This document shows positions 37,591-53,658 of a stretch of 64,000 nucleotides of DNA, piece after piece. Within the stretch, counting starts at the first letter, position 1. Each line of letters opens with the position of its first letter. Under the pieces are notes generated by a model. The model worked only from the letters and a program-made list of their open reading frames with translations. It was not told where the DNA came from and searched no databases. The DNA lies in IMG/VR virus record IMGVR_UViG_3300046808_001301; one strand, 5' to 3'. The stretch is from a virus. The position numbers were made by a program, and so were the translations under genes.

Positions 37591-40500
37591 ATGGCTTTAA
37601 TAACGTCACCATTAGATATTACTGGCTGTCAGCTTTGGTTAGATGCTAATCAAGGAGTCTTGGATCAATTTGGCAATCCTGTGACCGCTGACGGAACTTC
37701 TATTGGAACTTGGCGAGATCAAAGTGGCAACAACAATCACGTAAGCTCTAGTAGTGGCACTAGGCCTACTTACAGAACAAATATTAGAACTTCTCCTGAA
37801 AAATATAGCAATGTAGTAAGATTTGGAGGTAATGGGTTGCTTGCTACAGGAGACGTATTAGCGTTAGGAACTAACCACGCTTTACTGTTTGCTGTTATTA
37901 AAAATACAGTTGCTCCGACTTTTAATGCTCAACACATCATGTCTAAGAGCCGACCTGGTTCTGTTGGTCAGTATTTTATTAGTAGAACGTCTCCCGTAGA
38001 CGGATCCATCGCCAACGGTTTGTTGGGGTTTGTGTGGTCTAATGGGAATATGTACACAACTTTATCCAACACGTGTTCTGACTACACGATTGTTTGCTGG
38101 AACGTTTTAAGAAATCAATCAGTCAATGGACCAATGAAAATGCGTGCTAATAGATTTCAAAATAGCACCGACGCTGGTGGAGGAGACAACGGATTTAATG
38201 CAGTTCTTTCGTCCAGGTTTTGTATTGGAGGATGTAACGATTCTACAGGCTTTGCTGACAATTCCGATCCTGAATATTATTTTAATGGAGATATTTGCGA
38301 GTGTGGAGTATATATTCGAAATACCCCATACACTGATCACGAACTTAGACGTTTAGAGGGGTATCTTTATAATAAGTGGTTTTCCTCAACTAATCCAGTA
38401 GTTTTTAATTTAAAAGGATGGTTTGACGCTGCAGATTCTAGTACTTTGTTTCAAGACAGACTTGCAACAACTCCTGCAATTATAACTAGCCCCCAAAAGC
38501 AACCCGTTGGTTGTTGGAAAAATAAAGCTCTAGACGGTTACGGAAATTTTACTGGGATTGTCGGACAAACAGTTTCAGCGCTGCCCAGTGCCGTAGTTAG
38601 CTCTTACAACGGTTTGTCTGCTATAAGATTTAATGGACTAGCATCTCCTCTTACATTAACATATTTAAGTCTTTCGGCTCCAGATCAGACAACAGCAGGA
38701 GGATTTAGACATCAACAACAAACAGCAATTGTCGTTGTTGCTCCTCATAGTTCAAATTTTGTTGATAGAGCTAGAATTTTAGGGTCCAATAGAACTATTA
38801 CTGGTTCTAACGATGCTACAGCCGGGTTTACTCCTTTTGTTCAATTTGGGACAGCAACTACAATAGCTTCTCTGATTGATAACGGTAGTAATGCAGCTGT
38901 GCAAGCAAAGCTAGCAGAATTCAATATACTTACGAACAGAGCAAATAATACAGTAGAACTTACAAATACCAGAAACAGCCAATTAACAGCTTATCAGCAA
39001 AACACTAGTTTTACAGGCAAACTTTCTTCGTATGGATTTAGACTAGGAGCAAACATTGGTGTTAACGGAATTAACACAGCTCCCACGGGAACGCAGTATA
39101 ATGGAGATATTTCAGAAGTATTAATATATGATCGGTTTTTAACAAACGCAGAATGTCATCAAGTTGAATACTATCTTGCTAAAAAATGGAATATTCCTGA
39201 AGCTAAATTCACTTATGCTATACGAAACGGAAATTGGTCAGATGATGCCACGTGGTCAACTAACATTGTTCCGACTCTTAGTTCAGATGTATATTCTAAT
39301 GGATTTAACGTAACTATTGATCAAAACATAATAGAGGAGGTTCGAACTCTAAGAGGAACTCCTCCTCCCGCATACCCTTCTTTATCGTTAGCTAACAATG
39401 GCTCGTTTTTACTCAATCAGCCTTACACAATAAACATTGCACCTAGTAGCGTTAATCACTTTACAATTGTAGCTGGCACCGTTCCTGGGTTAGATTTAAA
39501 CGTTTCTACTGGTAGTGTACACTTAACAGGAAACATTATTTCAGGAACAACAACCACTGCTTACGGTTTAATACAAAGAGGCACTTCTCCTTTAACAGTA
39601 TACGGAAAAGTTATTCCAAATCAAGCCATTGGACTTTATAATTTAGCTGGAACTTCTGTAACTATAACCCAAACGTTATCTGGAGGAGCTGTAGATGACA
39701 TATACGGGGTATACAATCAAGCTCCGTTTTGTAATATTAGTGTATTAAGCGGAGTAACTGGAGGAACAGGTACTAGGAGTGTAGGAATATCAAGCGTCTC
39801 GACCGGAGCTCTTACTCTTTCGGGAAGAATTTTAGCTGGAACGGGGTTATCAGCAGCTGCTGTGGTTAGTTCTGTAACTACTACAATTGCTGTTACAGGA
39901 GATGTAACCGGAGGCCCAAATACCAATACTTCAGGCATTTTATGTTTGTCTTGCGAAGACATTAACATTTTAGGAGTAATTTCAGGAGGTTCTGGACTAT
40001 CAGCGTGCGGAGTAAACATTCCTTATACTAAAAACATATTTTTATCAGGAGCTAGCTCAGGAGCAATTGTAAGAGGAGGAACAGGAGAATCTACTCACGG
40101 GTTATATAATAATACAGCAAACAATATAACCGCATATGGAATTATAAGTGGTGGTACTTCTCGATACTCTCGAGGCATCAATTCTTTTTATGCTAATAAT
40201 TTATTTTTACAAAGAGGAGTTTTAGGAGGAACTTTATCAGCTACTAGTGGCTTTTATAACCTCACATCCAACTCTTTGTTTGTTAGTGGAAATATTGTAG
40301 GAGGCAACAACACTCTTTCTACAGGTGTTACTACACTAACTACTAGCTCAATTAAAGTAATTGGAAACATAACTGGTGGAACAATGTTGTCCTCGTTTGG
40401 CTTATTAAACGACGCAACAAACACAATAGAAATTTCCGGAAACCTAACAGGAGGATCAGGAGCTAATTCAAGAGGGCTGCACTCTAATGTGGCTACAACC

Positions 40501-41928
40501 TCAGTCATAATTTCAGGAAATGTTACGGGAGGAAGCGCATTTGAAGCTCACGGCGCTATGTGTCCTATTACGACGTCTGTCTCCGTAACAGGAAATATTA
40601 TTGGAGGATCTGGAGGAGGATTTGGTATTTTGTGTCTTTCTGCAGCTCCGTCTATATTCGTATTAGGAGACATACGGTCAGGCGGAAATACAGCATTTGT
40701 CGTGCGTCCCACAAATCCCGCGTCCTATTCCAATATAACTGTTATTGGAAACATACAAGGCATTGGAGCAGGAAACGGAGTTCTTAACGAATCTACGGGA
40801 AATTTAACCGTAATTGGCAATGTAATCGGTGGAGCAGGAACCAGCATACAAAACTTGTCGTCAAACGTTGTATACATATCAGGAAGCGTATCAGGTGGAA
40901 GTGCGGGAGTTGGACTATACGACAGACTTGCTCAATCTATTACCATTGTTGGCTCAATTTCTGGAGGAACAGGAGCTGCTGGATATGGTTTAAGATTGTC
41001 AAGTCCAAATAGTTCTACGGTAAATATTTCAGCAACGGATATTTCGGGCCGAGTAGGAGTAGCTATATACAACGATTTAAATCTTCTTGCTAACTATGCT
41101 GCAACAGGGTTTGGACCAGGATCTGAACCCGTCAGCAATATTTACATAAATTGTCCGCTAATACGTTCAGGAAGCAATTCAGGAGCTATAAGCAGCGTTA
41201 ACACAGGACAAGGAGCTGATATATACATAACAGGAAGTGTATATGGCTCCGGAGGAAATCCTACTATTGTAAACGCCAATAGATGGGGAAAAATTAACAT
41301 TAAAGGTGACGTAATTGCTGGGTTAGCTCCAGCTCCTATAGGTTATGTTATTGAAAATTTAAGCAATGCTACACTTCAAGTTACAGGTTCTGTCATTGCA
41401 ACAAACAACCAAGGAGCAATTAGAGGAGTCTCCCTCGGAGCAATTCATGAAATTAATGGCCCGATTATCAACGCTTCAAATGGCAGACAAGCTCTTTGGT
41501 TAAGAACGTATTATCATTCTGCTAAGAATTTTAATTCTTTTATTAGATACGGAACGAACACAGGAGGAACGTTAGACTTTTACGCTCCAGAAGGATATCC
41601 AGTTTCTCAAATTCCACCAGTTTCTTCTGTAGCAGCAGGAACCGTTTATGCTGTTATGAGTGCTCTTTCAGGCATGCCGTTTATTAACGTTTCTCAACTT
41701 ACAGGAACAATGATCGTTCCTTCAGTAAGCTCTGTTAAATTTGGCGTACCAGTTGGAATTGACACAGGAAAAGTAAAAGCAACCAAACTAAATTTAATCG
41801 ATATGTTAAATATAACTACTGAAAGTGGATTATTGACATCTGATGGCACCTATGGCAAATTACTTGCAAATATTTGCACCAAATCAACAGCATTATCAGG
41901 AGCTAGTCTCTTAGCAGGAGCACGTTAA
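37591..41928 (+). CDS. Large modular fibre/adhesin protein (two LamG-like domains and a Gly-rich beta-helix)
   Basis: Two W[LF]DA...W[RK]...GDI.E...YL..KW domains; [VI]xGN[VI]xGG repeats; shared C-terminal module. Confidence 0.8.
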   Translation: MALITSPLDITGCQLWLDANQGVLDQFGNPVTADGTSIGTWRDQSGNNNHVSSSSGTRPTYRTNIRTSPEKYSNVVRFGGNGLLATGDVLALGTNHALLFAVIKNTVAPTFNAQHIMSKSRPGSVGQYFISRTSPVDGSIANGLLGFVWSNGNMYTTLSNTCSDYTIVCWNVLRNQSVNGPMKMRANRFQNSTDAGGGDNGFNAVLSSRFCIGGCNDSTGFADNSDPEYYFNGDICECGVYIRNTPYTDHELRRLEGYLYNKWFSSTNPVVFNLKGWFDAADSSTLFQDRLATTPAIITSPQKQPVGCWKNKALDGYGNFTGIVGQTVSALPSAVVSSYNGLSAIRFNGLASPLTLTYLSLSAPDQTTAGGFRHQQQTAIVVVAPHSSNFVDRARILGSNRTITGSNDATAGFTPFVQFGTATTIASLIDNGSNAAVQAKLAEFNILTNRANNTVELTNTRNSQLTAYQQNTSFTGKLSSYGFRLGANIGVNGINTAPTGTQYNGDISEVLIYDRFLTNAECHQVEYYLAKKWNIPEAKFTYAIRNGNWSDDATWSTNIVPTLSSDVYSNGFNVTIDQNIIEEVRTLRGTPPPAYPSLSLANNGSFLLNQPYTINIAPSSVNHFTIVAGTVPGLDLNVSTGSVHLTGNIISGTTTTAYGLIQRGTSPLTVYGKVIPNQAIGLYNLAGTSVTITQTLSGGAVDDIYGVYNQAPFCNISVLSGVTGGTGTRSVGISSVSTGALTLSGRILAGTGLSAAAVVSSVTTTIAVTGDVTGGPNTNTSGILCLSCEDINILGVISGGSGLSACGVNIPYTKNIFLSGASSGAIVRGGTGESTHGLYNNTANNITAYGIISGGTSRYSRGINSFYANNLFLQRGVLGGTLSATSGFYNLTSNSLFVSGNIVGGNNTLSTGVTTLTTSSIKVIGNITGGTMLSSFGLLNDATNTIEISGNLTGGSGANSRGLHSNVATTSVIISGNVTGGSAFEAHGAMCPITTSVSVTGNIIGGSGGGFGILCLSAAPSIFVLGDIRSGGNTAFVVRPTNPASYSNITVIGNIQGIGAGNGVLNESTGNLTVIGNVIGGAGTSIQNLSSNVVYISGSVSGGSAGVGLYDRLAQSITIVGSISGGTGAAGYGLRLSSPNSSTVNISATDISGRVGVAIYNDLNLLANYAATGFGPGSEPVSNIYINCPLIRSGSNSGAISSVNTGQGADIYITGSVYGSGGNPTIVNANRWGKINIKGDVIAGLAPAPIGYVIENLSNATLQVTGSVIATNNQGAIRGVSLGAIHEINGPIINASNGRQALWLRTYYHSAKNFNSFIRYGTNTGGTLDFYAPEGYPVSQIPPVSSVAAGTVYAVMSALSGMPFINVSQLTGTMIVPSVSSVKFGVPVGIDTGKVKATKLNLIDMLNITTESGLLTSDGTYGKLLANICTKSTALSGASLLAGAR

Positions 41929-43507: not shown

Positions 43508-46500
43508 ATGGCTGCTTTAACATCTCCATTAGATATTCCAGGTTGCATTGTTTGGTTAGACGGTAACGACAAAACTACTATGTTTTTGTTGAGTACTGGC
43601 CTAAACCAAGTGCAAACCGACGGAGATGCAGTCGGGTATTGGAAAAATAAAGCTGCTTGGAATTCTGACTTGCTTTCACTCAATACCCTCGGAACAACGA
43701 CTCCAGGATTAAGTTCTTTTACGCATTTTCCTGGAACGTATCAAACAGCAAGGCCTGTATTTAAAGTTCAATCAAACAATACTTCTATACTTAATTTTGA
43801 TGGTTCTGATGCTTTAACGAGTTATTTTAATTTTCCTGTTCCAGCTCCTGCAAATAGCAGAGGGCTTACAACGTTTGTTACATTGAGCACTGGAAGTCCC
43901 GTGGCAAATTCCAGAACATACACTCACACAATTAATGGCTTACAAGATTCTGTTGCAGGAGTCGGAAATGTTATTCCGGCTTTTGGGCCAACTACCTCTG
44001 GTGTTATAGGTTCCCAAACTTCGCCGACTGGCTTGACTACTACTCAAACGCTTCGGTGGTCTCAATTTGAAACATACGTGTGTCATCATGACGGAACAAA
44101 ATTTACTTCGTATCTGAATAGTTTGCGATCAACAACTCCTAATTACGCTACTCATAGTTTAGACATGACGAACGTAAGTATTTCTAGAGTTGGGGCAGGC
44201 ATCGGAGCTGCTGGAGCAACTTTTGTTAATCCTGCAAGAATTAACGTGGCAGAAGTTATTGAGTATGATCGAGCATTAACTGATTCGGAAAGAATTAAAG
44301 TAGAACTTTATTTGAATAGAAAATGGAATGTCAATCAAAGAAGAACGTACGCAAAACAAAGCGGTAATTGGTCTGATCCAAATACGTGGATAGAAGAATT
44401 GGTACCTTTGACGTCAGACAATGTATTTAGCAACACATACAACGTAGATATTGATCAAAATATATTGGTTCAGGATTTGAGAAACGTCGCTCTTGCTCCT
44501 TATGTTCCTACAGGAGGAGGAATGTTTACTATTTCTGCTCCAGTTAACGTTGCAACATTAAGCGGGTCTGGGTTTGTTTCAAACGGAGTTGTGCCTTTAT
44601 TAAGCAGTTCTGCTTCAACTGGGACAGTTAATTTGACAGGACATATTGTTGGAGGTTCATTAGCCAATGATTGCTATGGTTTTCGTCATATTGGAAACGC
44701 TAGCGTCAATTTGTCTGGAAATGTCACTGCTGGAAATACTACACTATCTAGTTATGGGCTTTTATTTTATGCAGACATTGAATCTCCTAGCAATTTAACA
44801 ATAAACGGAAACGTAAGTGCCGGCAATGCTTCATCAAACTACGGAGTATCATATACAGGAGGAGGAGACGTAACAGTTACGGGGTATGTCTCAGCAGGAG
44901 GAGCCGTTGTTGGGGCCGATATGTGTTACGGATTAACGTGTATTGGGAACGGTTCAGTATACGTAGCAAGTGGAATATCTGCTGGATTTGGAAATATTTG
45001 TTACGGAGCATATCTCTCAGGAGGACAAACTAATTCAAGCGTTACTATAGGCTCTAGGGGAATTACAGCTGGTCCTGGAGCTTTTTCATTCGGTCTATAC
45101 AACGCTGGAGAAACCAGGTCTATTTCGATAACAGGAAACGTAGCTGCTTCTACTGGTTCGGGATCTTACGGTTTAAACAATGCTGGAAACGGAAACATTT
45201 CAATACTAGGAAATGTAGCTGCTTCTACTAATTTGGGATCTTATGGTTTAACTAACATTGGAAACGGAAACGTTTCATTAACAGGAAACGTAACAGCTTC
45301 TACTGGTTCTGGATCTTATGGTTTAACTAACATTGGAAACGGAAACTTATCAATAAGAGGAAACATAACTGCTTCTACTGGTTCTGGATCTTATGGTTTA
45401 ACCAACACCGGAAATGGAAATACAACATTAATTGGAGCAATAGTTGGTTCGACTAATACTCATGGAGCTGAATGCAGTGGAACTGGTGTAGTGTTTCTTA
45501 GCGGCAGAGCTACTGGTGGCGCTGGTTCAAATTCTTACGGTTTAAGGTGCCGCAGCACGGAATTGTCGGCTATAAGCGCATTTCCTTTAGGCACCGCAGT
45601 ATTTACTGGAGGTACAGGAACCAATTGTTACGGTTTATTGTTTGGTGGTAGTGCTGCTCCATTGTACGTAGAAGGAACGATTACTGGCGGTTCAGGAAGT
45701 GGGTCTCATGGAGCTTATATTGCAAACAGCACTTCTGTTAAATTGTTTGGGAACTTAAACGGAGGTACAGGATCTTCAATTGGTGTTTATGACGCTCAGA
45801 GCTCAAGCATTTCGTTAAGTGGAGGAGCTGCTGGAGGATCAGTATCAGGAGCGTATGGACTACATTTAGCGTATAACCCTTCGGTTATCAACACAAATTT
45901 ATACATAAACGGAGGACAGAATCGAGACATTACTGGAGGAAACGGAACCTCTACACATGGAGTTTACATTAACCGTGTATCTGATTTAACAGTAGAGAGG
46001 ATACTGAATATTAGAGGTGGAATTGGTGGAAATTTTTGTTATGGCATGTATTGGGCTTTTCCTTTATCAAGCTGTAACATTCAAGCATCAAGTATTAGAG
46101 GCGGAACCGGAGGTACTAATAATCACGGATTAACAATTGATGTGGATTGTACTGCAAACATAACAGGCAGCGTATTTGCTACTACTTGGGGCCACGGAAT
46201 TTACGTAGGTTCTACCTATTCGTATGTGTCTGCTAATACTTTCTTTTCTCCAAATCTTATTGTTAGAGGAAACGTGTCAGCTTCATCTGCTTCTGCTGCA
46301 GCATACAGCGCAATATACAACTCTCACAGCGACGTATACGTTGCTGGCAATGTTACAGGAGGAGCGTTCAGTGGAGCTTACGGTATTAATAATGTAGGAG
46401 GAAACGTTGACGTAAGAGGCAACGTTAATGGAGGCCCTGCTGCTGGAGGCCACGGAATATATGCTTCTTCTGGAACTGAGCGTTCTACAACAAACCTTAT

Positions 46501-47860
46501 TGTTAGAGGTAATGTTACAGGTGGAACTGTATTCAACAGCAACGGAGTGGTTAACGAAACGAATAACGGAACATTTCAGCTTTTTGGTAATCTTATTGCT
46601 CGTCCATCCTCAGGAGCAGTTGCTCTTCGTTCTGGTCATTGGAGTTCAGGAACTTATGGTATGCTTGCTAAAAACTATATTTGTGGAAACGTAATCAATG
46701 CTCCAGATGGAGGATCAGCAATGACAGCATTCCATTGCCAATTTTATCCTCCTGCTTCTTTTGGCTCCTACATTACATATTCCTCTGGATACAATACCGT
46801 TTTAGACATGGTTTTGCCAGATGGGTTTGGGATGCCGGAACCATGGGCAGTTCGTTCCGGAGTTTCTTATGCAAATGACACTCGCGTGGGAACCTGTGTC
46901 GTTCCGGATCCTAGATCAGTTAAATTAAGGACACCTGTTGATAACACGGAAGGACTTGCAATTTTGGATCCAATTGATTTATATAGCATTTCAACAGCTG
47001 TTCTCACAGCGGAAAACACACTAGGAAAATTGCTGTCCAATAGCTTAACTACCGAAGTGGCAGGAAACCTCGTTGCTAGCTGGAGCGAAGATTTTGGAAG
47101 CTATAGTCCAACAATGATTTCTGGTTTGCAGCTTTGGCTGGATGCTTCAGACAGTTCAACGTTATTTGATGCAACTGTTGGTGGCAATTTGGTAACTACT
47201 GACGGATCAGCTGTAGCAAGGTGGGCCGATAAATCCGGAAACAATAGGCATGCTATTCAAACAACGTCTACAGCAAGACCGCTACTCAAAACAGGCATCC
47301 AAGCTGGAAAAAACGTCTTACGTTTTGATGGTACGAACCATTATTTTAATATTAATAGCATAGCTGCGTTCTTTGGTTCCTCCCATACAATTTTTGCGGT
47401 TGCTCAAACTAATACAGGAGGAAAAAATGCTACATCAGAAGCATACCAAACTGTTATAGCAGGCACAGGATTTCATCAAACAATTTCATTCAGAGGATAT
47501 CCGCTCGCTAATATCGTTCATGCGGAAGTGTGGAATTCAACTCAAAGCCAGAATGCGACATCAACTCGTCCATATTCTGTAGGTAGCTGGATAGTCGCAA
47601 CCAGACGCGTTACTGCTTCCACAGCGTCAACTGTTCAGCTGTTTTTAAATAAAACAGCAGGAATTCAACAAGCTCTTTCGTCCGGCACCGTATTGAGAAC
47701 TCCTGTAGAAGCGCGTATTGGATGCGCTCAGACAGTTGGATCATTTGATTGGTTTTTAAATGGACAAATTTCAGAAATTTTAATTTATAATTCTGCTTTG
47801 ACTCCAGGCCAATACCAGAGTATTCAGTCATATCTCCAATCTAAATGGAATATTGTTTAA
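43508..47860 (+). CDS. Large modular fibre/adhesin protein (LamG, beta-helix, C-module, LamG)
   Basis: N- and C-terminal WLD...KW domains; GN[VI]xAG/GG repeats. Confidence 0.8.
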   Translation: MAALTSPLDIPGCIVWLDGNDKTTMFLLSTGLNQVQTDGDAVGYWKNKAAWNSDLLSLNTLGTTTPGLSSFTHFPGTYQTARPVFKVQSNNTSILNFDGSDALTSYFNFPVPAPANSRGLTTFVTLSTGSPVANSRTYTHTINGLQDSVAGVGNVIPAFGPTTSGVIGSQTSPTGLTTTQTLRWSQFETYVCHHDGTKFTSYLNSLRSTTPNYATHSLDMTNVSISRVGAGIGAAGATFVNPARINVAEVIEYDRALTDSERIKVELYLNRKWNVNQRRTYAKQSGNWSDPNTWIEELVPLTSDNVFSNTYNVDIDQNILVQDLRNVALAPYVPTGGGMFTISAPVNVATLSGSGFVSNGVVPLLSSSASTGTVNLTGHIVGGSLANDCYGFRHIGNASVNLSGNVTAGNTTLSSYGLLFYADIESPSNLTINGNVSAGNASSNYGVSYTGGGDVTVTGYVSAGGAVVGADMCYGLTCIGNGSVYVASGISAGFGNICYGAYLSGGQTNSSVTIGSRGITAGPGAFSFGLYNAGETRSISITGNVAASTGSGSYGLNNAGNGNISILGNVAASTNLGSYGLTNIGNGNVSLTGNVTASTGSGSYGLTNIGNGNLSIRGNITASTGSGSYGLTNTGNGNTTLIGAIVGSTNTHGAECSGTGVVFLSGRATGGAGSNSYGLRCRSTELSAISAFPLGTAVFTGGTGTNCYGLLFGGSAAPLYVEGTITGGSGSGSHGAYIANSTSVKLFGNLNGGTGSSIGVYDAQSSSISLSGGAAGGSVSGAYGLHLAYNPSVINTNLYINGGQNRDITGGNGTSTHGVYINRVSDLTVERILNIRGGIGGNFCYGMYWAFPLSSCNIQASSIRGGTGGTNNHGLTIDVDCTANITGSVFATTWGHGIYVGSTYSYVSANTFFSPNLIVRGNVSASSASAAAYSAIYNSHSDVYVAGNVTGGAFSGAYGINNVGGNVDVRGNVNGGPAAGGHGIYASSGTERSTTNLIVRGNVTGGTVFNSNGVVNETNNGTFQLFGNLIARPSSGAVALRSGHWSSGTYGMLAKNYICGNVINAPDGGSAMTAFHCQFYPPASFGSYITYSSGYNTVLDMVLPDGFGMPEPWAVRSGVSYANDTRVGTCVVPDPRSVKLRTPVDNTEGLAILDPIDLYSISTAVLTAENTLGKLLSNSLTTEVAGNLVASWSEDFGSYSPTMISGLQLWLDASDSSTLFDATVGGNLVTTDGSAVARWADKSGNNRHAIQTTSTARPLLKTGIQAGKNVLRFDGTNHYFNINSIAAFFGSSHTIFAVAQTNTGGKNATSEAYQTVIAGTGFHQTISFRGYPLANIVHAEVWNSTQSQNATSTRPYSVGSWIVATRRVTASTASTVQLFLNKTAGIQQALSSGTVLRTPVEARIGCAQTVGSFDWFLNGQISEILIYNSALTPGQYQSIQSYLQSKWNIV
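45128..45427 (+). repeat. Coding tandem repeat, 4 x 75 nt (25-aa beta-helix coil)
   Basis: GCTTCTACT...GGATCTTA[C/T]GGTTTAA recurs at a 75-nt period. Confidence 0.9.
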
Positions 47861-48156: not shown

Positions 48157-48188
48157 AAAGCCCTTTGCTGTTGCAAAGGGCTTTTTTT
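48157..48188 (+). terminator. Rho-independent terminator
   Basis: AAAGCCCTTTGC-TGTT-GCAAAGGGCTTT hairpin plus T run. Confidence 0.92.
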
Positions 48189-48204: not shown

Positions 48205-49182
48205 ATGAGTTTAGTATTAGTAACTGGGTGTGCTGGGTTTATAGGTTCAAGAGTATGCAGCATGTTGATCGAAGATGGACATGAAGTTGTCGGAATAGAC
48301 AATCTCAACAATTATTATGATCCGAGTCTTAAACAGTACCGTTTACGTAGGTTACGGTTTTTTGGTAACAAATTTAAGTTTGAGTTACTAAACATTGAAA
48401 ACAAAAACAAGCTAATTGAGTTATTCAAAACTCATTCGTTTGAAACGGTATACAATCTAGCAGCTAGAGCAGGAGTACAGAATAGCTTAAAAGATCCGTA
48501 TATTTATTTGTCAACAAATGCTGTAGGAACACTAAATTTGCTTGAAGCAATGAAAGAAACCAACGTCAAAAAAATGGTGTTGGCCTCAACTTCTTCATTA
48601 TACGCAGGTCAACAAATGCCGTTTACGGAAGATCTTGCAGTAAACACTCCTCTATCTCCATATGCAGCTTCTAAAAAAGCAGCAGAGTTGATGGCTTATA
48701 GCTACCACCATTTATATGGATTAGATATTTCCGTAGTAAGGTATTTTACGGTATTTGGTCCAGCAGGTCGACCAGATATGAGCATTTTTAGATTTATTAA
48801 ATGGATTGATGAAGGGCGTCCTCTTGAAATTTTTGGAGACGGTTCTCAATCAAGAGATTTTACATACGTTGATGATATAGCTAGAGGAACAATTCAAGCT
48901 TCAAAATCGTTAGGGTATGAAATTCTAAATTTAGGAGGAGGAAAGTCTCCAAAAAGTTTAAATTGGACGATTGATTTTATTTGTAAGGAACGCAACCTTC
49001 CTGTTCCAGCAAGATCAACAAAAGACTTTCATGTAGCTGACATTGTTGCTACTCAAGCTAATATATCTAAAGCTAACCAGTTAATTGGTTATGAACCAAA
49101 AATTTCTTTTGAAGAAGGGTTATTAAACACTCTTCAATGGCATAAAGAGAACAGTCATTGGCTTAAAAATATCAGAATCTGA
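48205..49182 (+). CDS. NAD-dependent nucleotide-sugar epimerase (UDP-glucuronate 4-epimerase-like)
   Basis: TGCAGFIG, NLAARAGV, ASTSSLY, YAASK, GRPDM, RDFTYVDDI. Confidence 0.93.
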   Translation: MSLVLVTGCAGFIGSRVCSMLIEDGHEVVGIDNLNNYYDPSLKQYRLRRLRFFGNKFKFELLNIENKNKLIELFKTHSFETVYNLAARAGVQNSLKDPYIYLSTNAVGTLNLLEAMKETNVKKMVLASTSSLYAGQQMPFTEDLAVNTPLSPYAASKKAAELMAYSYHHLYGLDISVVRYFTVFGPAGRPDMSIFRFIKWIDEGRPLEIFGDGSQSRDFTYVDDIARGTIQASKSLGYEILNLGGGKSPKSLNWTIDFICKERNLPVPARSTKDFHVADIVATQANISKANQLIGYEPKISFEEGLLNTLQWHKENSHWLKNIRI

Positions 49183-49193
49183 AAAATCTGATG

Positions 49194-49221
49194 TTGTTTA
49201 ATCTCATTTTTAGTATAAAAT
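49194..49221 (+). promoter_or_regulatory. Sigma70-like promoter of the modification operon
   Basis: TTGTTT-16-TAAAAT, 7 nt before ATG 49229. Confidence 0.55.
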
Positions 49222-49228
49222 CAACTCA

Positions 49229-49573
49229 ATGACAACCACTGTTATTATTACACTCCAATACGAAGCTTTTCACAACTGGCAGGGAGTCAAAGAGGCTCTT
49301 CCTGACAACCCAGAAATCCATTTCCTCTTTGATAGACACAGACATTTGTTTTTTATTACGCTAGAAAAACACGTAACTCATGATGATAGAGACGTGGAAA
49401 TCATTCTTTTTAAACGCAAAGTGCAAGATTATCTTGAAACAAAGTATGGCAGGCCAGGAGAACTTGGATCAAGGTCATGTGAAATGCTTGCAGAAGAACT
49501 TCTTAAGAAATTCGATTGCGAAACAGTGCAAGTACTTGAAGACAACGAAAACGGAGCTAAAGTATATAAATGA
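49229..49573 (+). CDS. QueD-like (6-pyruvoyl-tetrahydropterin synthase-like, T-fold) protein
   Basis: EAFH, HRH, DRDVE, SCEMLA and VLEDNENGA match the QueD metal-binding His and S/TxE pattern of the phage variant. Confidence 0.75.
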   Translation: MTTTVIITLQYEAFHNWQGVKEALPDNPEIHFLFDRHRHLFFITLEKHVTHDDRDVEIILFKRKVQDYLETKYGRPGELGSRSCEMLAEELLKKFDCETVQVLEDNENGAKVYK

Positions 49574-49995
49574 TTACCTTTGTCTGCGGTCAGCTTTGTT
49601 CCGGAAAAACCAGATATGCTAAAGCTATGGCTGATTCGGTGAACGCGTTGTTCATTGAAGTCGGGGATATCGTTCGTGAGATAACTCAGACAACCGATCG
49701 AGCACAACTTCAAGATACAAAAAACCTTTTGGATGAGATCGTGGAGCGACTCATACGCAAAATGCCTTTGTGTGATGTAAAGGAATACGTCGTTTGCGGA
49801 GTTAGGCAGAAAGAAATACTGTTACAATTTCCGGATGCAACGATGCTGTGGATTGAGTGTCCTAAAAAGGAACGTAAAAAGCGTTATAAAGAACGAGCTC
49901 GACAAGGAGATACTACTCCTTTTAAAGAAGCGGAACAAGGTGATATCGAACTAGGCATCTTAGAAGTTAAACAATACATTTTCGACAACAAATGA
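49570..49995 (+). CDS. P-loop nucleotide kinase (NMP / dephospho-CoA kinase-like)
   Basis: GQLCSGKT, GDIVRE, VVCGVR, Arg-rich lid. Confidence 0.75.
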   Translation: MITFVCGQLCSGKTRYAKAMADSVNALFIEVGDIVREITQTTDRAQLQDTKNLLDEIVERLIRKMPLCDVKEYVVCGVRQKEILLQFPDATMLWIECPKKERKKRYKERARQGDTTPFKEAEQGDIELGILEVKQYIFDNK

Positions 49996-50783
49996 AATTC
50001 TTTTGTATTCCGCCAAACAACCATCTCGACATGATGGACAACGGCGATTGGTATTTTGCTCTTTGTCATCACTATATACAAGATAAAAAGTATAGAGAAT
50101 ATTTCCTTAATTTAAGAAAAGCAAAACCTAATGCTTTTATTTTGCTAGATAATGGAGCAGCAGAGCATAGTCTCGTAACAGAAGATGTTTTAATCGAAGC
50201 TGTTATGGAATTACAACCAAACGAAGTAATTGCTCCAGACGTTTTGTTTGACAAAAAACAAACACTTAAAAATCTTGAGTCGTTTATTAATAAATTGATC
50301 AAAGCTCAAATGCTAGACAAGGTTAATTTGTTCGGTTGTCCACAAGGATTAACAAAACAAGAATGGGTTGAATGTTATTTTCAAATGGCTCTTAATCCGT
50401 TCGTTAAAACAATTGGATTAAGCAAAATTGCTGTTCCGAAATGTTGGAATAACGCAGTTGATGACAAGATGATTTCTCTGTCTCGTAATCAATGCGTTAA
50501 AGAACTACAGCAAACGTTGTTGTTAACTAAGCCTCTCCACTTGCTTGGTATGGGGGAACACAATGAGTTCGACTTCTACTTGAGAAACAAAATTAAAAAC
50601 ATACGCAGTTCGGATAGTTGTTACACAATACTTGCTGCAATGAATGGAATTGATTTTGAGACAGGAAATACATCAAGAATTCCTACAACCAATGCTTATT
50701 TTGATGTTACTCTCACGGACGAACAACAAGAACTTGCAAAGAAAAATATAAACTATTTAAAAACCAAATATAAAGAAATATGA
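49992..50783 (+). CDS. tRNA-guanine transglycosylase-like (TGT/DpdA-like) TIM-barrel protein
   Basis: Ordered motifs LLDNGA, IAPDV, GCPQG, LHLLG and RSSDS parallel TGT DSGG, xD, QG, [HY]LxG and the catalytic D; no Zn-binding tail. Confidence 0.65.
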   Translation: MKFFCIPPNNHLDMMDNGDWYFALCHHYIQDKKYREYFLNLRKAKPNAFILLDNGAAEHSLVTEDVLIEAVMELQPNEVIAPDVLFDKKQTLKNLESFINKLIKAQMLDKVNLFGCPQGLTKQEWVECYFQMALNPFVKTIGLSKIAVPKCWNNAVDDKMISLSRNQCVKELQQTLLLTKPLHLLGMGEHNEFDFYLRNKIKNIRSSDSCYTILAAMNGIDFETGNTSRIPTTNAYFDVTLTDEQQELAKKNINYLKTKYKEI

Positions 50784-51451
50784 AAAACGAACTTCTAATT
50801 GTTACATGCACAGAAGCTAAAACAGACAAAGAATTTAGTCAAAAGCCTTTGTATGCTAGTCTTCAAAAACAATTTGAAAGCAATTCTAATGTGTCTTTTT
50901 ATATTTTCAAAGACAACAAAAGAGGTCTTTCGGAGTGCTATAATGAAATTCTACAAAATCAAACAAACATCAATAAAACAGTTTTGTTTGTTCATGATGA
51001 TGTTGTGCTTGATGATATATTTTTATACGAAAAGCTTACTCAGAGCCCGTATTCAATTACAGGCCTTGCTGGCGCTAAAACCTTCAATAAGCGCGCTGAC
51101 AAGCTTGCCTGGCACCTTGCCTCAGATAGGACTGATTACGTTGGTGAAGTAACACACTTCCATGAAGGCAAAATCTGGACAACTGTCTTTGGACCGACTC
51201 ATTCAAGAGCGTTAACAATTGACGGTTTGTTTATTTCTTGCAAAGTAAACGACCTAAAGCAAAAGGAATTGCTGTTTGATACCAATTTTAATTTTCATTT
51301 TTATGATATTGCTTTTTGTTTACGAGCAAATGAAAAGAAAGTCAGCTGTGGGGTGCTTCCAATTAAAGCAACACATTATGGAATTGGAGATTCAATGTTG
51401 ACTCCCCAATGGGAAGAAGCTAATATCGAGTTCAAACAAATTTACGCATGA
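50780..51451 (+). CDS. GT-A fold glycosyltransferase (GT2-like)
   Basis: YNEIL, FVHDDVVL, GLAG, IDGLFI, FHFYDIAFCL. Confidence 0.85.
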   Translation: MKNELLIVTCTEAKTDKEFSQKPLYASLQKQFESNSNVSFYIFKDNKRGLSECYNEILQNQTNINKTVLFVHDDVVLDDIFLYEKLTQSPYSITGLAGAKTFNKRADKLAWHLASDRTDYVGEVTHFHEGKIWTTVFGPTHSRALTIDGLFISCKVNDLKQKELLFDTNFNFHFYDIAFCLRANEKKVSCGVLPIKATHYGIGDSMLTPQWEEANIEFKQIYA

Positions 51452-51987
51452 TTGTAACACCTGAACAACTTAGTCAAACAAGCATTTTAACTCAAGAAGG
51501 AGTTTATGATTGCTGTTTAATCCAGCAACGCTTTTCATACAAGCTTTTTGGCAATTCAGTTTCCTCATTGGGAGATGTCATAACATTCCGAGCTCCAATT
51601 AATATTGGTCCTTTATTCTTTGAAAATTCTATCGTCATAGCAGCAGAACTTCCGAATGCTTCTATGTTTGCTGGAACCTGCTTTGCTAGACTTTATGCAG
51701 CTCAGCTTGGATCAATTTTGTCCTCAATGATCAACGAAGAATATACTGTTGATGAAAGCTGTATTTTTTCTGGAGAAGCTCAAGCTAGTCTATCAATGAT
51801 CAACCAGGTAAAAGATTCAGTATTGTTGCACATTGTTTTTCCGTTGAAAGAAGGAAATACGAAAGAAACTTTTTCTTGTCTTAAATTAGACGAAGAAAAA
51901 CTACTTGGATTTGAAATTAGTGCTGTTGAAGCATTTCGACAACTTACTCGTAGCATTTTTATAGAGACAAGACGTGACAATTTTTGA
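51448..51987 (+). CDS. DUF366-like protein (BPL/LplA-like fold)
   Basis: YDCCLIQQRFSYKLFG...GDVITFRAP resembles DUF366 YDG...[WF]AY..FG..GD.I..F.[AG]P; the C-terminal half is divergent. Confidence 0.55.
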   Translation: MIVTPEQLSQTSILTQEGVYDCCLIQQRFSYKLFGNSVSSLGDVITFRAPINIGPLFFENSIVIAAELPNASMFAGTCFARLYAAQLGSILSSMINEEYTVDESCIFSGEAQASLSMINQVKDSVLLHIVFPLKEGNTKETFSCLKLDEEKLLGFEISAVEAFRQLTRSIFIETRRDNF

Positions 51988-52324
51988 TTATATTAAGGAT
52001 ATAGTCGTTACCAAACGTGGGGATTTGCCTTTAGAACAATATGTACCGTTCTTAATCAATCGTTGGTTGAGTTTTGTTAATCCTACACTGTGTAGCGCTA
52101 TTAACCAAATGAATAACAAGACGTTATTGGAAGACAAAGAAATGCACTATAAAACATTAATTGCTTTGTTTCCTAAGATGAAGTATTGTCCTAAGATCAA
52201 TTACGTCAAAAAAGTCAAAGAAGCGGAGTCAACTGAGAACAAAATGATAGGAGTTGTTGCTCAGCAACTAGAAATCTCTAAACGAGAAGCAGAACAATTA
52301 CTCGAAGGAAGGTCTGCTAATTGA
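51974..52324 (+). CDS. gp62: Clamp-loader small subunit (gp62-like)
   Basis: FDYIKDI...YVPFLINRWLS...AINQMN...EISKREA pattern. Confidence 0.7.
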   Translation: MTIFDYIKDIVVTKRGDLPLEQYVPFLINRWLSFVNPTLCSAINQMNNKTLLEDKEMHYKTLIALFPKMKYCPKINYVKKVKEAESTENKMIGVVAQQLEISKREAEQLLEGRSAN

Positions 52325-52843
52325 TTCAATCTCGTTTAAAAACGGAATTACGGACTCTCCTTTTAACGGTTGTTGCTTTTGACCGTTGTGCTTTTTAACG
52401 AATTCGTCTTTCCACGTTACATCATACTGCTCGTCTTCGTTAATTTCGTTGATTTCTCCGTTGCTTAACTTACGAAGCATCCAAACTTGTTTGTCGTGTT
52501 CATAAGGACCAGAAATAGCAGAAGGTCCAAACTCCAGCTTGCGGTTTTCGTCCATTACTTGGCGAAAAAGTTCCTTGAAAGAAGATAAACTTTCCTTTAC
52601 TTCTTTCTTTTTGCCTTTGTCAGATAAAGCTTTTTTCATTGACTCCTTTTTATCCCCGTCTTCATCAGCATCTAGATAATCGGGCTTGTCTTGTTTGGCT
52701 TCTTTAACGGCCATTTTTTTGTTTTTCTTTTTGCACTCTTCGCAGTTATCACACTTGCGTCCCTTTGCTGCCGCTTGACAAACATGCTTCTTTTCCATAA
52801 GAACGTAAGCTTCTTGCAACATTTCTAAATCTTTGAATACCAT
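52298..52843 (-). CDS. Hypothetical protein with Cys cluster and DxDxDG loop, probable internal head protein
   Basis: HVC...CDNCEEC; KPDYLDADEDGDKKESMKKA; TAAGTA upstream. Confidence 0.7.
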   Translation of the reverse strand: MVFKDLEMLQEAYVLMEKKHVCQAAAKGRKCDNCEECKKKNKKMAVKEAKQDKPDYLDADEDGDKKESMKKALSDKGKKKEVKESLSSFKELFRQVMDENRKLEFGPSAISGPYEHDKQVWMLRKLSNGEINEINEDEQYDVTWKDEFVKKHNGQKQQPLKGESVIPFLNEIESISRPSFE

Positions 52844-52896
52844 ATACCCTTTACTTATCGTTGACTACAGAATTTTTCACGGTAATTACTTACCAT

Positions 52897-53271
52897 ATGC
52901 ATCCTGTATTACCTCGCGAAAACAACGGTCTTGCTGACCTTGATCCTTATTCGAACTGCCCACTTCCAGAAGATTATGAAATTACCGAACTTCTTGGAGA
53001 TGTTATCCAATTGGTATATGCAGACACAGCAGAAGACGGCAAATCGCTTGTGCGTAACGGAATTATACTTCCTGAAGCAGTCGTTGAAAACAAAGCTTGG
53101 CGTGTAGGTAGGGTTATTATGGTTGGACCAAACGTCAAGCAAGTTAAAGCAGGACAACACGTTATTTTTCCAGGAGATAAAGGAATTAAAGGCATTCAAC
53201 GAGACGGCAAATTAAACATCTTCCTTAATGAAGAAAGAATTTTCGGAATTTGTAAGCCTCAAACAAACTAA
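52897..53271 (+). CDS. GroES/Cpn10-like co-chaperonin
   Basis: LGDVI...GIILP...GRVIMVGPNVKQVKAGQHVIFP...FLNEERIFGI; ATG 52897 preferred. Confidence 0.85.
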   Translation: MHPVLPRENNGLADLDPYSNCPLPEDYEITELLGDVIQLVYADTAEDGKSLVRNGIILPEAVVENKAWRVGRVIMVGPNVKQVKAGQHVIFPGDKGIKGIQRDGKLNIFLNEERIFGICKPQTN

Positions 53272-53658
53272 ATGAGACTCGGCAGAACAGCTCTGTGGAC
53301 ATTGCTCAATACAAATGCAGCAGAGCTACGTTTTCATCGCCGTATTTCAAAGAAAGGGTTTAAAGATTACAGAAGAATGTTGTGCACAGGAGATCGTCGT
53401 TTGTTACAATCTGCTCCAGCTAAACAAATTCTGAATTTTGTCCCTCCTCACGGATCACTTAAATACGACCCTCGAGCAAAAAATTTAATCGTAACTTGGG
53501 ATATATTCATGCAAAATTGGAGAATGATCAATTGCGACGACGTTGAATTAATCGCTGTAATCCCAACTTCTCCTGATCCTACAGAGTTCTGGAAATACTT
53601 TCAAGAACGCCTGGCAAATATGTCAGGCACACAAAAAGCTCAATTCATGGATACATGA
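53272..53658 (+). CDS. SH3/Sm-like beta-barrel protein (WYL_2/DUF2693-like)
   Basis: ELRF...RRMLCT...VTWDIFMQNWRMI pattern. Confidence 0.6.
   Translation: MRLGRTALWTLLNTNAAELRFHRRISKKGFKDYRRMLCTGDRRLLQSAPAKQILNFVPPHGSLKYDPRAKNLIVTWDIFMQNWRMINCDDVELIAVIPTSPDPTEFWKYFQERLANMSGTQKAQFMDT

Follow-up and report, generated by a model that had tools for sequence, protein, structure and literature searches.

Six genes chained by overlapping starts and stops in an uncultured virus raise the question of whether genes so tightly joined also serve one purpose. They lie at positions 49194-52324 of the window, by which we mean the whole 64,000-nucleotide stretch analyzed from IMG/VR record IMGVR_UViG_3300046808_001301. 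An earlier note, made from the letters of this DNA, read them as a single candidate system, and a new one, for deazaguanine hypermodification. Here we describe them as, with good confidence, a composite of two units: a module for 2'-deoxy-7-deazaguanine (dDG) of the type found in Cellulophaga phage phiST, and a separate resident block. The locus adds another phage lineage to the known dDG system. It also removes a false lead, because the glycosyltransferase (GT) and the DUF366 gene are neighbors of that module through insertion and not its partners.

The window comes from a T4-like myovirus. Its genes include those for terminase, tail sheath, portal, prohead protease and major capsid protein; the capsid protein shares only about 34% identity with its counterpart in any cultured phage. 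A blastn search of the region against cultured phages gave no match. The string consists of six plus-strand open reading frames (ORFs) at 49229-49573, 49570-49995, 49992-50783, 50780-51451, 51448-51987 and 51974-52324. Much of the earlier description stands. Direct reading bears out the six genes, the ATGA start/stop overlaps at 49570, 49992, 50780 and 51448, and the 14-nt overlap of the gp62-like gene, which starts with GTG at 51974, with the gene before it. The labels QueD-like, kinase, TGT-like, GT2-like, DUF366-like and gp62-like are likewise upheld by homology, profile or fold matches. The six-gene order is retained in eight related IMG/VR contigs, and the sixth gene (orf6) is absent from three of these.

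In phiST every G of the DNA is dDG, and the genes CGPG_00065 and CGPG_00067 were named DpdA3 and DpdL (Cui, Hutinet et al., NAR 2023, PMC10516641). The first unit of the string (49229-50783) appears from homology and gene order to be a mobile cassette of dpdL, a kinase-like gene and dpdA3, orthologous to phiST CGPG_00067, CGPG_00066 and CGPG_00065, respectively. The earlier claim of novelty falls with this, since the QueD-like gene is dpdL and the TGT-like gene dpdA3, both already known from the dDG system, and they stand in the same order as in phiST (PMC10516641). The link that was drawn to 7-deazaguanine in DNA, and not in tRNA, gains support from the phiST orthology.

The second unit (50780-52324, probably with the epimerase gene at 48205-49182) shows no demonstrable connection with deazaguanine. 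With the GT alignment as query, 80 viral loci were obtained, 57 of them with at least 2.5 kb upstream. In 50 of the 57 the arrangement GT-(DUF366)-gp62-GroES occurs without dpdL, kinase or dpdA3, and DUF366 is present in 26 of these 50; gp62 is present in all GT loci. Several of the GTs found without dpdA3 are 66-68% similar to the window GT, equal to the GTs of DpdA3-bearing contigs. The complete genomes G004, G007 and G008 carry the block and have neither DpdA3 nor FolE. Among the 69 IMG/VR DpdA3 loci that had enough upstream DNA to be counted, the GT lies downstream of DpdA3 in just 10 and is missing from 59; these locus counts, here and below, describe a pattern and are not a statistic, given biased sampling and related contigs. 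Searches of cultured phages by tblastn with the GT and with DUF366 gave no match, and phiST and Chryseobacterium phage MA9V-3 have no homologue of either. Because the GT block is frequent without dpdA3 and DpdA3 loci are mostly without the GT, the trio would be a cassette that was inserted into or beside the resident block, with the epimerase on one side and the GT on the other. GT and DUF366 are thus not conserved together with dpdA3, and lack of co-conservation is one of the outcomes that the earlier note had named as refuting; the six-gene hypermodification system fails by it. The glycosylated deazaguanine that the earlier note had proposed loses its footing as well, for GT and DUF366 occur with gp62 in phages that lack dpdA3 and folE. 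The presence of gp62, once taken as a functional pointer to replication through co-transcription, reflects the site of cassette insertion instead.

Synteny suggests that the GT2-like, DUF366 and gp62 genes form a resident block of the T4-like lineage in which DUF366 is an optional member, and the epimerase is probably part of a resident sugar cassette. The epimerase gene (48205-49182, +) encodes an NAD-dependent nucleotide-sugar epimerase/dehydratase (Pfam PF01370, E 2e-59; phrog_540). The GT2-like gene (50780-51451, +) matches PF13712 with 27.8 bits against a cut-off of 27, and this family is precomputed on most of its homologues. The protein has no strict DxD motif; H72-D73-D74 is invariant. 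The DUF366 gene (51448-51987, +) encodes 179 residues with a biotin/lipoate-protein-ligase-like fold. PF04017 is matched by 11 of 17 homologues of this family (best E 3.1e-6), the window protein itself being sub-threshold, and its Atlas neighbors are DUF366 clusters. Its AlphaFold2 (AF2) model has a predicted local distance difference test score (pLDDT) of 88, and the best fold match is 2ddz (template modeling (TM) score 0.70, E 2.6e-8), followed by biotin and lipoate protein ligases. We found no paper that mentions DUF366. The gp62-like gene (51974-52324, +) encodes a clamp-loader subunit of 116 residues, a core T4-like gene (phrog_225, E 3.4e-11).

What the epimerase-GT-DUF366 genes modify is a question apart. 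It is moderately likely that their target is something else, whether a different base in the DNA, a protein of the virion or a sugar of the host envelope, and such a target is compatible with the two-unit composition and not opposed to it. The epimerase and GT are contiguous in relatives, directly abutting in L122 and L125, and the GT matches a capsule-type GT2 family. The cassette of epimerase, GT and DUF366 beside gp62 is widespread in uncultured T4-like phages. Against a DNA base as target, the usual hydroxymethyl-pyrimidine acceptor is missing: five complete relatives have no ThyA-like or dCMP-hydroxymethylase gene, so such an acceptor for the GT is also unlikely.

The third gene of the cassette, dpdA3 (49992-50783, +), encodes a minimal guanine transglycosylase of the tRNA-guanine transglycosylase (TGT) fold with 263 residues. 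The window protein is 38% identical to phiST CGPG_00065 over 258 residues (E 2e-62), and tblastn with it gives matches in Cellulophaga phages phiST, phi13:1 and phi19:2 and in Chryseobacterium phage MA9V-3. The earlier note had expected a TGT barrel with catalytic Asp here, and both are found. The AF2 model has a pLDDT of 91.2, its top 50 Foldseek matches are all tRNA-guanine or archaeosine transglycosylases (TGT or ArcTGT), and VIA-align superposes it on Z. mobilis TGT 40-361 with Z 17.1 and a root-mean-square deviation of 3.2 over 230 residues. All 44 homologues, of 26-63% identity, retain D53, D83 and D208 without exception; the spacing is 30/125, and that of D95, D130 and D256 in the Salmonella enzyme DpdA is 35/126 (PMC10164549). 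The DMFDC nucleophile motif of E. coli TGT aligns with D208 at a low hhalign probability. By spacing, and by that only, D53 and D83 would be equivalent to the general acid/base and the base-binding Asp. There is no invariant Cys among the 44 homologues, so a TGT-like Cys-based zinc site is not conserved in DpdA3.

The phage lineage that this locus adds to the dDG system is abundant, with about 350 protein clusters at 90% identity. Several proteins of the DpdA3 family (P0127, P0130, P0168 and P0261) contain LAGLIDADG homing-endonuclease or intein domains, which makes the gene a target of selfish elements. Two complete T4-like genomes, G005 and G006 (the whole records behind L131 and L150), carry a DpdA3-family gene distant from the GT-gp62 block (G005:C1:213008-213847 and G006:C1:88216-89055) and lack FolE. 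In G005 the match is split in two, and the second part contains one TGA.

The first gene, dpdL (49229-49573, +), encodes a QueD paralogue predicted to be a 7-carboxy-7-deazaguanine (CDG) decarboxylase. What defines DpdL, a name given to CGPG_00067 of phiST, is the motif LxxxHRHxF where QueD has CxxxHGH, and CDG decarboxylation is its predicted activity (PMC10516641). The window protein matches phrog_17812, is 44% identical to CGPG_00067 (E 3e-30) and carries LFDRHRHLF at residue 33; the defining motif is present in all 46 of the 46 family members. Phmmer and profile searches against PDB sequences with DpdL, DpdA3, GT and DUF366 returned nothing meaningful. DpdL homologues are also present in Vibrio phage Bakedbeans (gp176, L186:5188-6369), Synechococcus phage BUCT-ZZ01 (L187) and Faecalibacterium phage Roos (L188), none of which matches the DpdA3 or kinase profiles of this analysis. 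The Bakedbeans DpdL makes up the C-terminal third of a 393-residue protein whose first 270 residues are unassigned. BUCT-ZZ01 has a xanthine-guanine phosphoribosyltransferase within its QueE-QueD-FolE cluster.

The second gene (49570-49995, +) encodes a P-loop nucleotide-kinase-like protein with the Walker A sequence GQLCSGKT; the P-loop pattern is present in 45 of 48 family members. It is 27% identical to phiST CGPG_00066 (E 4e-14) and matches Pfam AAA_18 (PF13238, E 5.4e-9). A profile of the family finds the archaeal AdkA-like SSO1041 (UPF0200; 3lw7 and 3h0k) as a full-length match (E 8.5e-9). CGPG_00066 was stated to have no homologues in other deazaguanine phages (PMC10516641), and in cultured phages that pair DpdL with another DpdA type we saw no kinase of this type. 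The kinase is the most constant DpdA3 partner after DpdL, and some phages have it joined in one protein with DpdL or with DpdA3. A kinase domain lies upstream of DpdA3 in 62 of the 69 loci and DpdL in 66 of 69, as scanned with hidden Markov models of the two families built from unfused sequences. DpdL and kinase are fused as a single ORF of about 300 residues in 23 loci, and in protein clusters P0219 and P0254 an N-terminal P-loop kinase domain is fused to DpdA3. A gene of dCTP-deaminase/dUTPase fold (DCD-like) or a MazG gene is present in 36 of the 69 loci, and the most frequent full layout is QueD-QueE-DCD-like-DpdL-kinase-FolE-DpdA3.

The precursor of the base has to be traced in a relative. 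G001 is complete, a 217-kb contig with terminal repeats whose major capsid protein is 91.5% identical to that of the window. It encodes FolE at 64.9 kb and, adjacent to each other at 39.2-40.3 kb, QueD and QueE; QueC was not found and MazG gave no match in this genome. A set of FolE, QueD and QueE without QueC is the phiST pattern and would end at CDG, and it is shown in the relative G001 only. The earlier note had FolE, QueE and QueC missing from the window. This holds for FolE and QueE; QueC is excluded only for the ten ORFs of 48205-53658, which were searched with Pfam, PHROGs and NCBIfam and of which a minus-strand ORF gave one weak QueC-like PHROG match. QueD linked to DpdA3 modules (L014:864-1304, phage QueD set) reads C-x3-H-G-Y and not the canonical C-x3-H-G-H, so that the catalytic Cys is retained and the second zinc-binding His is replaced by Tyr.

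The genes suggest the following pathway. GTP would be converted to CDG by FolE, QueD and QueE encoded elsewhere in the genome, as seen in G001 only, and DpdL would decarboxylate CDG to 7-deazaguanine, as published predictions have it. DpdA3 would swap guanine for 7-deazaguanine, and virion DNA would carry dDG for dG, as measured in phiST. The kinase linkage, the fusions and the company of dUTPase-fold or MazG genes hint at an exchange of the base on free nucleotides, ahead of replication. In this scheme dGTP would be cleaved to dGMP by a MazG or dUTPase-fold enzyme, DpdA3 would act on the deoxyguanosine nucleotide and exchange the base there, the kinase would re-phosphorylate 7-deaza-dGMP to the diphosphate, and the polymerase would incorporate dDGTP. 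We hold this pre-replicative, pool-level route tentatively, with slightly less than even confidence. It would explain complete replacement, and it fits the finding that dpdL and dpdA3 alone yield no dDG in E. coli (PMC10516641). The nucleotide-level step that the earlier note had assigned to the kinase is in this respect supported by fusions and co-occurrence and is not proven. The kinase role, if true, bears on whether complete G replacement is pre- or post-replicative.

A bolder extension has, in our view, somewhat less than an even chance. DpdA3 would be the first TGT-family enzyme that acts on free deoxyguanosine nucleotides, and 7-deaza-dGTP would be built before replication with the help of a dGTP-cleaving enzyme and the kinase. 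The polymerase, and not base exchange after replication, would produce the genomes with 100% dDG, dADG or fdPreQ1, and the E. coli reconstitution would have failed for want of the kinase. To our knowledge, no member of the TGT family acts on free nucleotides.

The whole reading draws on homology, synteny, fold, motifs, co-occurrence and fusions, from which we infer every enzymatic step, and several points weigh against it. The published model is post-replicative exchange on DNA (PMC10516641). The activities of DpdL and DpdA3 are predictions even in phiST, and dDG in the DNA of this phage and its close relatives is likewise predicted. FolE, QueD and QueE are absent from the 64-kb window, and the DCD-like gene of G001 lies far from the cassette. 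Seven of the 69 DpdA3 loci show no kinase nearby. BLASTP detects no similarity between the window kinase and the kinase domains of P0219 and P0254, so these halves are analogous P-loop domains and not demonstrated orthologues. The loci were sampled with patterns from the DpdA3 family, many come from few samples, and the counts are not independent.

The main rival is the published model, in which DpdA3 inserts 7-deazaguanine into finished DNA; the P-loop protein could then be an ATPase helper functionally analogous to DpdB and not a nucleotide kinase. In bacteria, the insertion of preQ0 by DpdA indeed depends on the hydrolysis of ATP by DpdB (PMC10164549). The P-loop protein is tightly linked and sometimes fused to DpdA3, which itself retains the full Asp triad of enzymes that act on polynucleotides. 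We nevertheless consider this explanation rather unlikely: the P-loop protein is NMP-kinase-like (nucleoside monophosphate; AdkA-like/UPF0200, AAA_18) and not ParB-like, its fusions are far more often with DpdL, the maker of the free base, than with DpdA3, and genes of dNTP-pyrophosphatase fold stand in the same operons in 36 of the 69 loci. Complete replacement of G also counts against this explanation, as 100% replacement is otherwise known to us only from pre-replicative routes. Least probable by far is that all six genes are one new system whose deazaguanine is glycosylated or otherwise decorated by GT and DUF366. In its favor, the six are translationally coupled, keep their order within the clade of the window and include a DUF366 protein with an adenylate-forming ligase-like fold, for which the activation of a carboxylate, for example CDG, is conceivable. 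Against it, dpdA3 is absent from 50 of the 57 loci in which the GT, with or without DUF366, accompanies gp62, DpdA3 and FolE are both absent from complete genomes that have the block, the GT is missing from 59 of 69 DpdA3 loci, phiST and MA9V-3 have homologues of neither, and 7-deazaguanine has no hydroxyl or amine at C7 for glycosylation.

The transcription signals of the locus have a bearing on where the unit begins. The earlier note placed all six genes under one sigma70-like promoter. The scan lists no plus-strand sigma70-like site at 49194-49228, the proposed hexamers TTGTTT (49194) and TATAAA (49214) are spaced by just 14 nt, and promoter-like sites in the region number 15 as compared with 14.9 in shuffles, which is no enrichment; the claim is not sustained. 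No terminator-like site lies between the epimerase gene and the six-gene string. A terminator-like hairpin of 12 pairs with a T tail is present upstream at 48157-48184 (+), and another follows gp62 at 52364-52388 (+). Because these hairpins bracket the stretch from the epimerase through gp62, the transcription unit may start with the epimerase and comprise seven genes.

Other genes flank the string. Just upstream are two very large plus-strand ORFs of 1445 and 1450 residues (37591-41928 and 43508-47860), the second of which, probably a tail fibre, has internally repeated similarity to several stretches of the relative L002. A variable minus-strand ORF of 181 residues (52298-52843), present in about half of the clade, lies between gp62 and the GroES-like gene. 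It was considered as a QueC-like or DpdF protein because a QueC-like PHROG and DpdF both gave weak matches (E 0.002-0.03); these had no Pfam support and were rejected as noise.

The closest known system is that of phiST. The two share the trio of DpdL, P-loop protein and DpdA3, tightly coupled and identically ordered, with identities of 44%, 27% and 38%, and the complete relative G001 resembles phiST in having FolE, QueD and QueE without QueC. They differ in that phiST is a 79-kb siphovirus and the phage described here a roughly 200-kb T4-like myovirus. The precursor genes are adjacent in phiST, where CGPG_00065 directly follows QueD, QueE, FolE, a MazG-like gene (CGPG_00068) and two small genes, and are scattered over the genome in the relative. 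No MazG was found here to correspond to the MazG-like gene of phiST, and a gene of DCD/dUTPase fold lies elsewhere in the relative. The cassette of the window stands between a sugar epimerase and GT-DUF366-gp62, and the system is known here from genes alone. In the resident block, the DUF366 protein is comparable to Pyrococcus horikoshii 2ddz (PF04017), with 11 of 17 homologues matching the family and a fold TM score of 0.70; the window protein represents a phage lineage of that family.

The DpdA and DpdB proteins of the Salmonella Montevideo Dpd restriction-modification system (PDB 7UI4, PMC10164549) offer a second comparison. DpdA has the TGT-like TIM barrel and three invariant Asp with similar spacing, and dependence on a partner NTPase would be a further likeness. 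DpdA3 differs in its size of 263 residues, its lack of an invariant Cys and a partner that is NMP-kinase-like and not ParB-like. The bacterial DpdA (bDpdA) modifies <0.1% of G, whereas the DpdA3 phages replace all G.

The proposed route can also be compared with pre-replicative pathways, namely that of T4 with the gp56 dCTPase, gp42 and the gp1 dNMP kinase, and the route to 2-aminoadenine with MazZ, PurZ and DatZ. As an analogy only, these combine a dNTP pyrophosphatase, an enzyme acting on a dNMP and a dedicated kinase to replace one base completely. The proposed route differs in that a transglycosylase of the TGT family would carry out the nucleotide step.

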